This document shows, one piece after another, positions 6,174 through 45,491 of a DNA stretch of 64,000 nucleotides. The translations under genes and the position numbers were made by a program. Numbering within the stretch: position 1 is the stretch's first letter; every line of letters starts with the position of its first letter. The notes beneath the pieces were generated by a model. The model made no database searches. It was not told the DNA's origin and saw only the letters and a list, made by a program, of their open reading frames with translations. Location of the stretch: IMG/VR virus record IMGVR_UViG_3300005366_000002, positions 40,106 to 104,105 of that record; one strand, written 5' to 3'. The stretch comes from a virus.

Positions 6174-6995
6174 ATGTCAGACTTCTACGTGTACGCACTG
6201 CTTGACCCGCGCAAGCCTGGGAAGGCTCGCTGTCCTGGCACTGGCAAGGTCCTCCCTTGCCTGCCCAAGTACATTGGCAAGGGCCGTGGCATTCGTGCTG
6301 AGCGGTCTGCCAACGTAGAAGATCATCGGTTCATTCGGTCGACCAAGGCCGCCTGGATGCGCCGCCTCACCAGTGAAGGGCACGAGCCCCAGCTGGTCAT
6401 GTTGAAGACCAACATGGAAGAGGCGGCTGCATTCGCTCTCGAACGCGACCTGATCGCCCACTTCGGACGCAAGGATCTGAAGCTCGGGCCTCTCCTCAAT
6501 CGCTCGCATGGCGGCGAAGGGGCTACCCACACAACAGATGAAGACCGCGACGAGTACGTTCGCCTGCTCAAGCCTGTGAAGGGCTTCCGTCTCCTAGGGC
6601 GCATGCACGGACGAGGCTGCTATGCAAAGCATGAGTGCAAGGTCCACGGTGTCGTGGAGACTGCACCATGTCACGTTATGACTCGTCTCAAGAAGGGCAT
6701 CCCTCCATGCCCACGTTGCGGCGAGACTGCTCGCGGCCCACAGATCCGTGTCCATCGACTGGCAAACGGCGAGGCCTCCTACAAGGCCTACCTTGCCTCG
6801 AAGTTCAAGACCAAGCAGTACCGCCTCGACGGCCCTTACCTGGGCGCGGTCAAGCACACTGAGCATTGGTGTGCTGTGCATGGTCAGTTCAAGATCACAC
6901 CTTCCAACGTGAGACAAAAGCTCGACCAGGGGCTGACGCCTTGTCCGGCTTGCAACGCGGTCACGCAGAGGCATGGGCCTCGCCCAAGACTGTAA
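6174..6995 (+). mobile_element. Free-standing GIY-YIG (LEM-3-like) homing endonuclease with two C-terminal CxxHG...CxxC zinc repeats
   Basis: FYVYALLDPR...KYIGKGRGIRA, conserved E (ALERDLI) and LLN; CKVHG..CPRC and CAVHG..CPAC; codon usage differs from neighbours. Confidence 0.8.
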
Positions 6996-26098: not shown

Positions 26099-27169
26099 AT
26101 GCAAAAGGCAACTCTCCGTGCCGCCAAGAACCCCGTCGTGCTGGCCACGGAGCTGAAGCTCGCCGGTTCCGACGAGTACGCGATCGGCCGCTTCGGTTCC
26201 GGCAAGGGCGAACTGAACGCGTCCAACAAGAAGGACCTGCTGGCCCAGCAGCAGAAGTTCCTGCAGGCCGCGTCGCAGGGCAACATGCTGGCGATCACGG
26301 CGGCCCAGTCCAAGGACATGGTGCACGCCGCGTTCAACAGCCCGGAAGCCCACCGCGTCCTCGGCGAGAAGATCAGCGAGTCGCTGTACATCACCGCGAA
26401 CCGCCAGGGCTTCATGCGCAAGTACCTCGCGAAGATCGACGTCCAGCAAGGCTCGATCCCGCGCTTCCCGCTGCGCACCAAGAACGTGACCGCCGTCTGG
26501 TCGACCTCGCCGACCAAGGTCGAGTCGCAGATCACCCGCGACAAGTGGTTCACGCCGCCCGAACTGTCGGTCGTGGCCCGCCCGTTCATCACGCAGATCG
26601 ACCTGCACCAGTCGAGCGGCGACCTCCTGCAGGAGAAGTACATCGAGGCCGTCGAGGCCACGATGGTCGCCGAAGATCGCCTGTACTACAACCAGCTGCA
26701 AGCGCTGGTGGGCGTCGACAACAACCTGACCATCGTGTCGGGCCAGCTGACGCCGTACTCGCTGATGACGGTCGTCACGAACGTCACCCGCTGGGGCCTG
26801 AAGGGCGCGCACCTGCTGATGGCGACGGACCTGTGGCAGGACGTGGTCGGCAACTCCGACTTCTTCACCGCCATCGACCCGGTGGCCCGCCACGAACTGC
26901 TGCTGACCGGCGAGCTGGGCACGATGTACGGCATGACCGTCACGTCGGACGCCTTCCGTCACCCGGAGCACAAGGTCCTGGGCCAGGGCGAGTTCTACGT
27001 GATCTCGGACGCGCTGAACCACGGCGCGTACTCGGATCGCGGCGGCCTCCAGTCGACCCCGATCGACATCTCGATGGAGAAGGTGCCGGGCCGCGGCTTC
27101 GTCGTGCACGAAGCGCTGGCCGTGTCGGTGGCGAACAGCCGCTCCTTCGCCAAGGGCTACCGCCTGTAA
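26099..27169 (+). CDS. Major capsid protein (HK97 fold)
   Basis: 356 aa, strongest codon bias, MVAEDR spine helix, GELGTMYGMTV A-domain pattern, synteny. Confidence 0.85.
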   Translation: MQKATLRAAKNPVVLATELKLAGSDEYAIGRFGSGKGELNASNKKDLLAQQQKFLQAASQGNMLAITAAQSKDMVHAAFNSPEAHRVLGEKISESLYITANRQGFMRKYLAKIDVQQGSIPRFPLRTKNVTAVWSTSPTKVESQITRDKWFTPPELSVVARPFITQIDLHQSSGDLLQEKYIEAVEATMVAEDRLYYNQLQALVGVDNNLTIVSGQLTPYSLMTVVTNVTRWGLKGAHLLMATDLWQDVVGNSDFFTAIDPVARHELLLTGELGTMYGMTVTSDAFRHPEHKVLGQGEFYVISDALNHGAYSDRGGLQSTPIDISMEKVPGRGFVVHEALAVSVANSRSFAKGYRL

Positions 27170-37615: not shown

Positions 37616-37660
37616 GAAGGGCCCCACGGGATTCAGTTCCCGTGGGGCCCTTCTGCTTTT
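37616..37660 (+). terminator. Strong terminator at the convergence of the + and - blocks
   Basis: GAAGGGCCCCACGGGA...TCCCGTGGGGCCCTTC perfect stem, then TGCTTTT. Confidence 0.85.
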
Positions 37661-38064: not shown

Positions 38065-38492
38065 TGGTCAGGAAGGTCGATGGTTGCGCGGTAGACGAGT
38101 GACACGTAGGCCCTGCAGAACGCGACGAGTCGTGTGGGCCCGTAGCACATGATCTCCAAGTCCTTGCCTGTCGATCGTCCATTGTAGACGCGGATCTCGC
38201 AGCACTGAATCCGGCCGTGCTGAGTCTCGGCATGCCAGAACGAGACGCCATCGAGGGCCTCGATGATCGGACCTGCCCAGTCCCAATCCTTCGTGGGCTT
38301 GAACGGAACGAACTCACCTTCGCTGTCGTAGCCGAGGCCGTGGAAGTTCTTGCCCAGGGAGTAGACCCTGTATTCACCGCTGCCAAGACGGCCAACGCTG
38401 AAGAACGGCGCACCTTCACGCTGACCGTAGACGAGGGCGACGGCCGCGTCCAGTGCCGAGCCCTCCATGTGAATCACCAGATGTTCGCTCAT
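38061..38492 (-). CDS. NinX-family (DUF2591-like) protein
   Basis: LDAAVA...FKPTKDWDWAGPIIE...GPTRLVAFCRAYV. Confidence 0.7.
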   Translation of the reverse strand: MSEHLVIHMEGSALDAAVALVYGQREGAPFFSVGRLGSGEYRVYSLGKNFHGLGYDSEGEFVPFKPTKDWDWAGPIIEALDGVSFWHAETQHGRIQCCEIRVYNGRSTGKDLEIMCYGPTRLVAFCRAYVSLVYRATIDLPDQ

Positions 38493-39808
38493 ACGTCCGC
38501 CAGATTTGCCATGGTCTCGGAGCTCTCTGTTGATGTGTCCGGCATCGACTCGACGGGCATGACACGCATCCACGCCCAGTGGAAGCCGACCTCGAACGGA
38601 TAGGAGCCGCTGTTGCGCGCCTTCGGTTGCTCGACCTTGATTCGGCCGATCTCCTTCTCGCGCTCTTCCTTCTTCGTGACCCAGATCCACGAGTTGTTCG
38701 AGTGCTCGCTGATGGCCTGCGCGTAGCGGATCTTGCCGTCCTGGTTGACCTGACACAGCAGCACGTTGACCGTGTTGGTGTTGTCCGCGTTGATCTTCGC
38801 AGTGCGAGCGATCGCACCCAGGGCCTGCCACGAGTCCTCACCGGTCGTGCCCTTCAGCAGCGAGATGTAGTCGATGATCCGCACGTCGCAGTCGTAAGCG
38901 TTGACCGCGGCCAGCACGTCCTCGATCGACACGTCCTCGTCCGGCTTGTAGATCGTGAGGCGGCCGCCCTTCTTCGCGATGTGCTTCATCCACCGCTGGA
39001 ACTTGGCGTACCCTGCATCGCGTTCGACGTCGGTCAGCTTGCCGGTCAGGATCCGCGTGACGTCCACCTTGTTGAGGTTGGCGCCGATGCGGCTCATCAT
39101 CTCGTCCTTGGTCATCTCCAGAGGGACGATCACGACCTTGTAGCCCTGCTGCGCGATGTTCATCGCGAGCTGACAGGCCAGCAACGACTTGCCACCACCG
39201 GACGAGGCGCCGACGGTGAACAGGCCGCCGCGAAGCAGACCGCCAGAGCGCTCGTCGAACGGTCCGATCATCGTGGGGATCACGTTCTCGGTCTTGTCAC
39301 CGTAGAACAGGTTCTTGACGGCCTCACGGCTGTTGTTGTTCAGCCCGAAGTGCAGGAAGTTGTTCTTCTGCGACTTGTTGGCCCGAGCCGAAGCGATGGT
39401 CGACGACGCCTGCTCCATCAGCTTGTCGATATCGCACTTCGATCCGCTCATCGCTTCGTCGATGGCGAACTTCAGCTCGTTCATCATCCGGTACTGCCGG
39501 TACGTGCTGAGGATCTTGACGGCCTTGCGCGCGTCGTCCTTCGTCTGGATCGCTGCCTCCGAGTCGCGGAAGAACGACCGCGCTTCCTCAGACAGGTCAG
39601 GGTCGGAGATCACCAGCTTGTAGAGCGGCGGCTCACCGGTGTCGACCATCTGCTTGCGGATGGCCTTCAGCACCTCCTTCGATTCGGGCGCGTCGAAGAA
39701 CGACTCGTCCACCGAGCTGAGAATCGAACCGGCGATGACGCGGTTCTTGTTTGTCATCCCCCGCAGAACCATGAGTTCGGTGCGGGGGCTTACGGTCTTG
39801 ACTGCCAT
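38489..39808 (-). CDS. dnaB: Replicative DnaB-like helicase
   Basis: GASSGGGKS, PLEM, IIDYI, LLCQVN, KAR arginine finger. Confidence 0.9.
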   Translation of the reverse strand: MAVKTVSPRTELMVLRGMTNKNRVIAGSILSSVDESFFDAPESKEVLKAIRKQMVDTGEPPLYKLVISDPDLSEEARSFFRDSEAAIQTKDDARKAVKILSTYRQYRMMNELKFAIDEAMSGSKCDIDKLMEQASSTIASARANKSQKNNFLHFGLNNNSREAVKNLFYGDKTENVIPTMIGPFDERSGGLLRGGLFTVGASSGGGKSLLACQLAMNIAQQGYKVVIVPLEMTKDEMMSRIGANLNKVDVTRILTGKLTDVERDAGYAKFQRWMKHIAKKGGRLTIYKPDEDVSIEDVLAAVNAYDCDVRIIDYISLLKGTTGEDSWQALGAIARTAKINADNTNTVNVLLCQVNQDGKIRYAQAISEHSNNSWIWVTKKEEREKEIGRIKVEQPKARNSGSYPFEVGFHWAWMRVMPVESMPDTSTESSETMANLADV

Positions 39809-39829
39809 TGGCTTCCTCTCGTTGACAGT

Positions 39830-39836
39830 CTATTTA
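39830..39836 (-). promoter_or_regulatory. TAAATAG motif, putative class R promoter of dnaB
   Basis: Reverse complement CTGTAAATAG, overlapping the upstream TAA stop. Confidence 0.6.
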
Positions 39837-40568
39837 CAGGTCCAGCTCGCGGTACATGACGGACCCGTCGCGGGCGAAGGTGTAGAGGTAGTCGCCGTTC
39901 TGGGAAATCGACTCGTCCTCTTCGCCGATGTCGATGTAGACGCGGATGCCAAGGAGCTGGCCGATCATGCCGGACTCCTCGACCTCGGCGAACGACGGCG
40001 GACAGCTCATGCACGTCATGATCGCCTTGGTGCACATGAGGCGTACCAGCACGCGCTTGTTGATCAGGACAGCGTTGACACCCAGGTTCGACGACAGTGC
40101 CTGGAAAGCGCCCAGCGAGAACGTGAGAGGGAGGCCGCGCAATGCATCCTGGGAGCGCATCTTGGCGCGCAGCTCCTGCATGGTCGTCCGCTTGACCATC
40201 GGGTACTCGACGAAGTAGGTGCCGCCGCCCACCGCGTGGTTCTTGACGACCAGCGCGCTCATGTGGGACACGAAGCGGCTCTCGGGCGTCAGGTAGGCGT
40301 CGGTCAGCATCTGGGTGTCGCCGATGTGGCCGATCTGGCCTTGCAGGACATGTCCGTTGTCCGCCGACTGGCGGATCATGCGGATCGTCAGCTCCTGCGA
40401 GCACATGAGCTCCCAGAGGCCGGCACCGACGACGATCGCTTCGACCTCGTCGTCTTCGGCCAGCTTCTTCAGGAGATCACGCGACCAGAACTGCGGCTCG
40501 GACTTCACGATGTCCTTGCCGTAGGTACGAGCTTCGAACTCGACGAGGGGTTTGACTTGAGCATTCAT
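39834..40568 (-). CDS. Protein built from two major-capsid A-domain-like repeats
   Basis: Ungapped 56-aa alignment to this window's MCP (see findings). Confidence 0.7.
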   Translation of the reverse strand: MNAQVKPLVEFEARTYGKDIVKSEPQFWSRDLLKKLAEDDEVEAIVVGAGLWELMCSQELTIRMIRQSADNGHVLQGQIGHIGDTQMLTDAYLTPESRFVSHMSALVVKNHAVGGGTYFVEYPMVKRTTMQELRAKMRSQDALRGLPLTFSLGAFQALSSNLGVNAVLINKRVLVRLMCTKAIMTCMSCPPSFAEVEESGMIGQLLGIRVYIDIGEEDESISQNGDYLYTFARDGSVMYRELDL

Positions 40569-41146
40569 CAGATGATCTCCTGGACTTGCTTCACGCTGGT
40601 GTTGGCGAAGTAGGCGATGCCGTGGCAGGGCACGTGCAGCCGCGTTTGGGCAAACGAAATCGGGTCTTCGCCGGCGACGACCACGATCTTGGGAACCGAC
40701 GAGAACCGCTCGATGATGTCGCGGGCCTTGTCGTACTTGAGGTAGTTGGACTTCGTGCTCAGGTTCGAGATCACGATTATCGACGGACTGAGGTCACGCT
40801 TGAGGATCGGGTTGTCATAGCCGTTGAAGACCGGCTCCCAGATCGGGTCGGCGTTGATGCCGAGGCGCAGCCTGTGGATCTCGACCAGGTAGGCCGCGAA
40901 ATACTTGGCCTTCTCGTCGTCCGGTGATCCAGCAACAACGTAGGTCAGCGGAGTCCTCGGCGACCTGGTGAACAGGTCCAGCGAGTTCTGCTGTACCTTG
41001 GCTTCGATGATCTTCTTCTCGCGCCGCGAGCTCTCGGTCATGAAAGCCTTCGGCTCCCAGAGCAGGCGCTTGCGACGGAACGCCGTGCAGTCCGGGAACA
41101 TGGCGAGTGTGTCTCTCCCGACCTTGATGTAGTTCTTCTCGGTCAC
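40568..41146 (-). CDS. Degenerate P-loop protein, possible helicase loader
   Basis: TYVVAGSPDDEKAKYFAAYLV and IIVISNL topology; close to dnaB. Confidence 0.45.
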   Translation of the reverse strand: MTEKNYIKVGRDTLAMFPDCTAFRRKRLLWEPKAFMTESSRREKKIIEAKVQQNSLDLFTRSPRTPLTYVVAGSPDDEKAKYFAAYLVEIHRLRLGINADPIWEPVFNGYDNPILKRDLSPSIIVISNLSTKSNYLKYDKARDIIERFSSVPKIVVVAGEDPISFAQTRLHVPCHGIAYFANTSVKQVQEII

Positions 41147-45435: not shown

Positions 45436-45442
45436 CTATTTA
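45436..45442 (-). promoter_or_regulatory. TAAATAG motif, putative class R promoter of the clamp operon
   Basis: Reverse complement CTGTAAATAG, intergenic. Confidence 0.65.
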
Positions 45443-45450
45443 CAGTTCCA

Positions 45451-45491
45451 GAACAAAGAAGGCCCCGGCAAGACAAGCTCACCAGGGCCTT
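45451..45491 (-). terminator. Rho-independent terminator after the structural gene pair
   Basis: - strand AAGGCCCTGG...CCGGGGCCTT-CTTTGTTC. Confidence 0.7.

Follow-up and report, generated by a model that had tools for sequence, protein, structure and literature searches.

A lineage-specific gene between p192 and DnaB that probably encodes a tandem derivative of the major capsid protein A-domain

The viral DNA analysed here, a window of 64,000 nucleotides with a GC content of ~62%, comes from a 104-kb IMG/VR virus record (IMGVR_UViG_3300005366_000002, positions 40,106 to 104,105) that is 44% complete by CheckV. On its minus strand lies an open reading frame (ORF) encoding 244 amino acids (39834–40568), referred to below as P0001, whose product appears to resemble, twice over, one part of the phage's own major capsid protein (MCP), the 356-amino-acid product of a plus-strand gene (26099–27169). 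P0001 is not in the head module; it sits in a minus-strand replication block, between the gene for a 192-amino-acid protein (p192) and that for a DnaB-like replicative helicase. A first-pass annotation, made from the sequence, had already placed it among replication genes, and had given these coordinates exactly. The MCP is 65–67% identical, and DnaB 47–50% identical, to the corresponding proteins of the jumbo myophages Ralstonia phiRSL1, Burkholderia BcepSauron, BcepSaruman and BCSR5. Coordinates of all features are collected in Table 1.

Its native codon use, its ribosome-binding site and its overlap with the upstream gene mark P0001 as a real gene. The GC content at third codon positions (GC3) is 0.89 and the codon-adaptation score is 0.72, which is also the score of DnaB. 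The ATG start codon has an AGGAG sequence 8 nucleotides 5′ of it and overlaps the p192 stop codon (TGATG), and DnaB starts 25 nucleotides past the P0001 stop codon. Two overlapping ORFs were considered as genes in its place and rejected, one on the plus strand (39639–40613; GC3 0.66, codon score 0.37) and one on the minus strand (39790–40404; GC3 0.40, codon score 0.21). The encoded protein is mildly acidic (isoelectric point 5.2) and has no hydrophobic segment.

The gene order around P0001 is conserved; its presence there is not. SF2 helicase, p192 and DnaB follow one another in four isolated phages and in more than 15 IMG/VR relatives, and in most relatives p192 abuts or overlaps DnaB (more than 10 have nothing between the two). 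The closest relative found, whose MCP, DnaB and p192 are 88%, 71% and 66% identical to those of the window, has p192 and DnaB overlapping by GTGA and lacks P0001. In the window the end of p192 (CAGGAGATC...TGA) has been retained and now supplies the ribosome-binding site of P0001, and a new ribosome-binding site for DnaB is present 3′ of the gene; P0001 is a precise, lineage-specific insertion between p192 and DnaB. Over ~20 relatives this junction contains anything from 0 to ~3.2 kb of ORFs unrelated to one another, between flanking genes (SF2 helicase, p192 and DnaB) that are conserved. The cargo amounts to a single 58-amino-acid ORF in phiRSL1 and to five ORFs, one of 611 amino acids, in BcepSaruman; among the related phage loci whose junctions were compared (L002–L005, L009–L022 and L167–L169), L010 carries three ORFs, L011 two paralogous ORFs and L019–L022 one to four small ORFs. 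Because the relatives carry unrelated cargo there, the junction is an accessory-gene hotspot, a position that fits an accessory or a conflict role without indicating which. The idea that P0001 is a conserved replisome subunit was rejected, since the gene is absent from relatives.

Searches for relatives of the protein returned only P0001 itself, both in a word-indexed search of 5.8 billion protein clusters and in an exhaustive phmmer search of 1.84 billion representatives. Likewise, tblastn against 50,697 phage records, megablast and six-frame searches of five close relatives gave nothing beyond the gene itself. The protein is present on 4 contigs.

Within this ORFan the two halves are diverged repeats of each other. 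They align in register with a Smith–Waterman score of 41, as against 25.3 ± 4.1 for shuffled sequences, and only 4 of 1000 shuffles reach that score. The best ungapped self-diagonal among offsets 20–224 is 122, exactly half the length of the protein. Offset 123 ranks third and brings a G-x-I-G...D...ES pattern into the same position in both halves, the G-x-I-G falling at offset 77 of each. The second, diverged copy described in the first-pass annotation is thus recovered as a pair of in-register halves with a period of 122–123 residues. The copies are ~80% diverged, and BLASTP of half against half finds no match, the repeat being visible only by Smith–Waterman alignment with shuffles and by MAFFT. 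Repeat 1 reads, in order, RDLLKKLAEDD, EAIVVG, LWELM and LQGQIGHIGDTQMLTD, and repeat 2 AFQALSSNLG, NAVLIN, LVRLM and ESGMIGQLLGIRVYID. As a separate observation, repeat 2 holds a cysteine cluster (C179-x6-C186-x2-C189; 40002–40034, minus strand) of which repeat 1 keeps just the equivalent of C179 (C56, in LMC); the cluster is possibly a metal or redox site acquired once the duplication had occurred.

The order of elements in each repeat is that of one particular part of the MCP. Two solved capsid proteins match the MCP-family profile, gp27 of phage G (6WKK) over nearly the whole chain (E 1.3e-24) and the 80-alpha capsid protein (5TJT) at profile positions 220–289 only (E 0.0039), and because of these two matches the MCP is, by homology, a genuine HK97-fold protein. 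Along its chain, a long helix at ~172–204 and another at 219–233 lead into a strand (AHLLMAT), a further helix (DLWQDV) and a hairpin (LLLTGELGTMYGMTVTSD). From the known topology of the HK97 fold and from homology to 6WKK and 5TJT, the helix at ~172–204 is the spine helix and the subsequent elements are the A-domain core, the sole part that the MCP family has in common with the distant 5TJT capsid. We relied on homology and topology for this mapping because an AlphaFold2 model of the MCP, built on a low-diversity alignment of 46 rows, was unusable (predicted local distance difference test score, pLDDT, 42.8). It is the order of this A-domain core that each repeat of P0001 follows.

The sequence similarity itself is faint and improves when both repeats are used. 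The first-pass annotation had aligned 56 residues of P0001 without gaps to the MCP (26813–26980); BLASTP reproduces this register and extends it to residues 45–118 of P0001 against 239–311 of the MCP, at 20% identity and E 0.015. The Smith–Waterman score of the two proteins is 48, compared with 33.4 ± 5.0 for shuffled sequences (z 2.9; reached by 17 of 1000 shuffles). On its own this single-sequence similarity is marginal, the more so as the reader who first noticed it had the whole window to choose from. In hhalign, the single P0001 sequence matches the MCP-family profile at P 0.031 and the C-terminal half alone chooses the same MCP columns at P 0.56, whereas a two-row profile of the halves reaches P 5e-4 with a probability of 29–31% (residues 45–98 against MCP 239–292). 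Such a gain on adding the second half is as homology predicts. None of 462 column shuffles attained the score of the halves profile (mean 13.5, standard deviation 2.8, maximum 29.3; observed 31.0), a reversed control gave P 0.11, and a larger and more diverse MCP alignment gave P 0.0036.

Unbiased rankings point to the same segment. In an unfiltered search of the window's 776 six-frame ORFs with a hidden Markov model (HMM) of the halves, the MCP ranked first among the 775 other than P0001, at E 0.31. Against 97 MCP-family sequences the same model gave more than 25 matches of 8–16 bits, all at residues ~235–331, and distant members of the family outscored the phage's own MCP. Across the six-frame translations of ten related genomes the halves profile had a sole match, the corresponding MCP segment of a 172-kb relative (E 0.003 per genome). 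That the phage's own MCP was recently duplicated to give P0001 was rejected, given the higher scores of distant members and the lack of the gene in the closest relative. Of the invariant MCP residues the P0001 segment retains G271, D284 and E290, and of the near-invariant ones A285 and P289.

For the fold we turned to the ESM Atlas, which holds a model of the exact P0001 sequence, a language-model prediction of moderate confidence (pLDDT 0.67, predicted template modelling score 0.48). Its eight listed structural neighbours are all phage capsid clusters, three of them aligning to residues 7–123 and five to the C-terminal half, mostly 125–243. The alignments span 103–117 residues of capsid proteins of 290–398 amino acids, with template modelling (TM) scores, normalized by the query, of 0.34–0.38. 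By arithmetic, a TM score of 0.38 under a 244-residue norm with 117 residues aligned corresponds to ~0.79 per aligned residue, which suggests that each half superposes closely on the capsid clusters. Two clusters matched by the N-terminal half (353 amino acids, 429 members; 371 amino acids, 222 members) share descriptors with the top two clusters returned for the phage's own MCP. The Atlas model, with its moderate confidence, is the strongest single item in favour of a capsid relation. Only about one third of the HK97 fold is represented in each repeat: with ~122 amino acids per copy, none of the N-arm, E-loop, spine helix and P-domain can be accommodated, in agreement with the first-pass annotation, to which the rest of the capsid fold had appeared absent. 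Because these parts are missing, the P0001 product cannot form a shell.

Transcription signals bear on when the protein might be made. The TAAATA at 45437 is likely the start of a transcription unit that includes P0001, and a scan of the minus strand from the region upstream of the clamp-like gene through P0001 to the terminator at 37616–37653 found no terminator-like site within the unit. (That terminator has T-runs on both strands and separates the plus-strand virion block from the minus-strand replication block.) With 0.6 copies expected, TAAATA is present 7 times in the window, at 6993 and 14671 on the plus strand and at 39831, 45437, 51151, 55157 and 58795 on the minus strand, each time ~10–50 nucleotides 5′ of a start codon. 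The five minus-strand sites lie in the replication block, and the genes preceded by the hexamer include those for DnaB, the clamp-like protein and the clamp loader; the copy at 39831 (CTGTAAATAGA) has the same extended motif as that 5′ of the clamp gene. The hexamer resembles the T4 late -10 element, TATAAATA, and is a candidate phage promoter class. In related loci, GTAAATA stands 34–39 nucleotides before DnaB in five that bear cargo (L002, L010, L011, L020 and L022), at -87 in L003 and at -63 in L016. It is found 5′ of DnaB only where cargo parts p192 from DnaB, often overlapping the stop codon of the cargo, and is absent wherever p192 abuts DnaB (L005, L009, L013, L015, L017, L018 and L167–L169). 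phiRSL1 encodes no RNA polymerase and is rifampicin-sensitive (PMC5468394); given these data, TAAATA, if it is a promoter, would be read by the host polymerase. Given the TAAATA motif class and an orientation shared with the genes for replication, it is reasonable to infer that P0001 would be made before the capsid.

Several features of the neighbourhood deserve mention in their own right. p192 matches a PHROG labelled 'DNA polymerase' and has no Pfam match; its size is far below that of a polymerase, and two related genomes (L170 and L171) carry a second, distant paralogue of it. We regard the label as doubtful. Among the junction cargo of relatives, a 65-amino-acid ORFan (L022:4763–4960) contains EEHAKMFTGMIGTVYGFSIIES, which looks like the MCP hairpin. 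Among 32 cargo ORFs it gives the best hhalign match to the MCP profile (P 0.0027, or ~0.09 after correction), and it matches phrog_1650, a major head protein family, at E 0.11; this may be a second capsid-fragment gene at the hotspot, although the match is non-significant once corrected. The paralogous pair in L011 (4293–4637 and 4634–4969; 114 and 111 amino acids) begins MRPK[IV][KR]ITSS, and a third member of that family occupies the same slot in L020 (4610–4972). A 167-amino-acid ORF in L010 (3231–3734) has an HEVGH (HExxH) motif and is possibly a small metalloprotease-like accessory protein. Finally, the last cargo ORFs before DnaB share an N-terminus, MN[AS]HQRR[VI], in L003 (4129–4464 region), L010 (4485–4955) and L022 (4763–4960), their remainders being different.

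Table 1. Coordinates of P0001, of the MCP and of neighbouring features in the window.
Feature	Coordinates	Strand	Basis or remark
P0001 ORF, 244 amino acids, sequence ORFan	39834..40568	-	GC3, codon score, ribosome-binding site, self-only matches
AGGAG ribosome-binding site, 8 nucleotides 5′ of P0001 ATG	40577..40581	-	sequence
Repeat 1, residues 1–122, the more MCP-like copy	40203..40568	-	alignments; Atlas structure rows cover 7–123
Repeat 2, residues 123–244, the more diverged copy	39837..40202	-	alignments; Atlas structure rows cover 125–243
56-residue segment, residues 45–100, ungapped to MCP 239–294	40269..40436	-	contains LW, L-x-G-x-I-G, D-A-Y-x-x-P-E
Second-copy hairpin motif EESGMIGQLLGIRVYID, residues 197–213	39930..39980	-	same within-repeat offset as first copy
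MCP, 356 amino acids	26099..27169	+	phrog_2522 major head protein, E 4e-89; family profile resembles 6WKK
MCP residues 239–311, segment resembled by P0001 repeats	26813..27031	+	BLASTP, hhalign, HMM; overlaps 5TJT match
p192, 192 amino acids, upstream neighbour, phrog_20094 labelled 'DNA polymerase'	40568..41146	-	PHROG match
DnaB-like replicative helicase, downstream neighbour	38489..39808	-	family matches
TAAATA promoter-like motif over P0001 TAA stop, 22 nucleotides before DnaB ATG	39831..39836	-	motif search
TAAATA 5′ of clamp-like gene, just after terminator 45459–45491	45437..45442	-	motif search
Bidirectional terminator closing the minus-strand replication block	37616..37653	.	perfect hairpin, 16-bp stem, 12 G-C pairs

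What the locus shows directly is an intact, native-looking, lineage-specific cargo gene with an internal tandem repeat and a weak, convergent relation to the A-domain segment of the MCP; its fold, as seen in a language-model structure, the timing of its expression, its binding partner and its phenotype we infer. An origin from a capsid A-domain is, in our judgement, probable. P0001 would then be an accessory gene confined to this phage lineage, and its product would carry, twice in tandem, the A-domain core (helix, strand, helix, G-x-[IL]-G hairpin) of an HK97-fold MCP of the phiRSL1 and phage G type, a description we think likely to be right. The gene was inserted at the exact junction of p192 and DnaB, which normally overlap; it is probably translated by coupling to p192 and, by extension, would be transcribed with the replication genes.

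A number of results weigh against this account, whose weakness is that it concerns a single ORFan for which the evidence of homology is moderate. No individual sequence test is strongly significant, as the hhalign probability and the HMM E-value in the window illustrate. Neither Pfam nor PHROGs matched a capsid family at E ≤10, whether the query was the complete protein or one of its halves (a Pfam scan of P0001 at that threshold returned no PF08967 and no member of a capsid clan); a phmmer search of the PDB gave only non-significant, non-capsid matches, and a PDB-wide HMM search with the halves put a non-capsid entry, 5d88, on top at E 0.28. P0001 was folded with AlphaFold2 without an alignment because none can be built for an ORFan, and the model was unusable (pLDDT 30.6). 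The remaining structural support is a moderate-confidence language-model prediction that is itself tied to the sequence motif, and the Atlas feature scores of 0.85–0.89 lie within the range attainable by shuffled proteins. With an ORFan on 4 contigs, conservation and selection cannot be shown. Most of the invariant MCP residues of the segment, D244, D248, E266, R287, H288 and H291, have been lost, and because of that loss mimicry of a specific MCP surface is doubtful. The tandem of two diverged, MCP A-domain-like segments reported in the first-pass annotation stands with moderate support, and the interpretation placed on it there is partly supported.

Could the resemblance be accidental? An unrelated alpha/beta ORFan, whether or not its internal repeat is genuine, whose G-x-I-G...D motif happens to look capsid-like, and whose language-model structure has been over-read, would explain a pairwise E of 0.015, an hhalign probability of at most 31%, Pfam, PHROG and PDB searches without a capsid match, AlphaFold2 without a fold and feature scores that shuffled proteins attain; moreover, multiple testing applies to an MCP that was picked after reading the whole window. 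Yet rankings free of that choice also select the MCP, the first of 775 ORFs and the sole match in ten genomes, the second half strengthens the signal instead of diluting it, and all eight Atlas rows are capsids, covering both halves and including the clusters of the phage's own MCP; we consider coincidence improbable. A capsid-derived cassette might instead be an evolutionary by-product, short-lived and with little or no function in a permissive hotspot. Its restriction to a single lineage, with no relatives among ~15 billion proteins, and a hotspot full of unrelated ORFans would suit that idea, which appears quite unlikely all the same for a frame of 244 codons that is intact, fully native in codon use and preceded by a strong ribosome-binding site, and whose two repeats have both stayed open despite ~80% mutual divergence, pointing to a long history under some constraint. 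The position directly before DnaB and the translational coupling to p192 would suit an exapted replisome scaffold that binds p192, DnaB or both and stabilizes or regulates helicase loading, and Family 4 A-domain proteins do form complexes with adjacently encoded partner enzymes (PMC8346489). However, more than 10 relatives have p192 abutting DnaB and others carry unrelated cargo, and because relatives have nothing or unrelated cargo at the junction, the position speaks of a hotspot rather than a partnership; we rate a replisome role as very unlikely.

Two readings take the A-domain likeness as functional. The P0001 product might bind the A-domain capsomer contacts of MCPs, poisoning co-infecting phages or satellites or delaying or tuning the assembly of its own phage. 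The same structural evidence serves this reading as serves a decoy: A-domain helices are the main inter-subunit contacts in a capsomer (PMC8346489), two linked A-domains would resemble two adjacent capsomer subunits, and the hotspot position fits inter-phage conflict. But the phage's own MCP would be poisoned as well, the N-terminal half being nearest to the phage's own MCP family, and a gene absent from all relatives is not required for assembly; overall this seems unlikely. The other reading extends the decoy proposed in the first-pass annotation. P0001 would encode a soluble protein that mimics the face through which unassembled MCP forms capsomers. Made ahead of the MCP or together with it, the mimic would occupy a partner recognizing that face, the likeliest partner being a host capsid-sensing immune protein bound without being triggered. 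We hold to such a mimic tentatively, as the likeliest mode of action although less probable than not; against it, activation and not blockade is the outcome to expect when a ligand binds a sensor, and no host defence system is in evidence. More speculative, and something of a long shot, is that proteins of two linked A-domains come together, perhaps in threes, to give a pseudo-hexameric replica of the centre of a capsomer, which would make P0001 the first known capsid-derived immune decoy against Avs7/8/10-like or CapRel-like sensors. Our literature search turned up neither a capsid-derived decoy nor a capsid-derived assembly poison, and no published phage example of such a gene.

Among the chief triggers of bacterial immunity are capsid proteins, and the capsomer-forming face of the A-domain is gripped by several sensors. 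A phage protein that consists of A-domain copies only, does not assemble and occupies a rapidly changing accessory slot readily suggests itself as a candidate molecular mimic. Even without a known function, P0001 would mark a second route, after the archaeal A-domain encapsulins, by which an HK97 fold has been reduced to its A-domain, and it would be the first tandem form of such a derivative.

Among the known systems closest to P0001 are the MCPs of the phiRSL1 and phage G gp27 type, with which it shares the succession of a helix, a strand (AIVVG or AVLIN), a helix and the G-x-[IL]-G...D pattern of MCP ~235–311; it differs from them in its ~20% identity, its duplicated partial fold, its place in a replication block and its absence from relatives. 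Full-length MCP paralogues within one phage are familiar from T4, with its vertex protein gp24 alongside gp23. As with paralogues of the gp24/gp23 type, P0001 would go back to duplication of a capsid gene in a phage lineage followed by divergence, but those proteins retain the complete fold, form part of the virion and belong to the head module, whereas P0001 is a tandem of fragments outside it. Defences that recognize the MCP or sense head proteins include CapRel SJ46, Lit/Gol, Avs7/8/10 and Thoeris (PMC13728456, PMC13581612); several of these sensors recognize the A-domain capsomer interface, and it is the A-domain region that Avs7/8/10 bind (PMC13581612). The region sensed is the part that P0001 resembles, although the known means of escape is point mutation of the MCP and nothing ties P0001 to such a system. 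A precedent for the proposed architecture is offered by the Family 4 A-domain encapsulins (DUF1884, PF08967; PDB 2PK8), stable A-domain-only derivatives of the HK97 fold, the helices of which correspond to capsomer contacts and which associate with partner enzymes (PMC8346489). They are cellular proteins of hyperthermophilic archaea and two Bacteroidetes genera (PMC8346489). Like P0001, they are free-standing, consist of the A-domain only (~100 amino acids) and show very little likeness to capsids in sequence; unlike it, they are single-domain, cellular and encoded downstream of their partner enzymes, whereas P0001 is phage-encoded, is a tandem of 2 × 122 amino acids and is flanked by replication genes.

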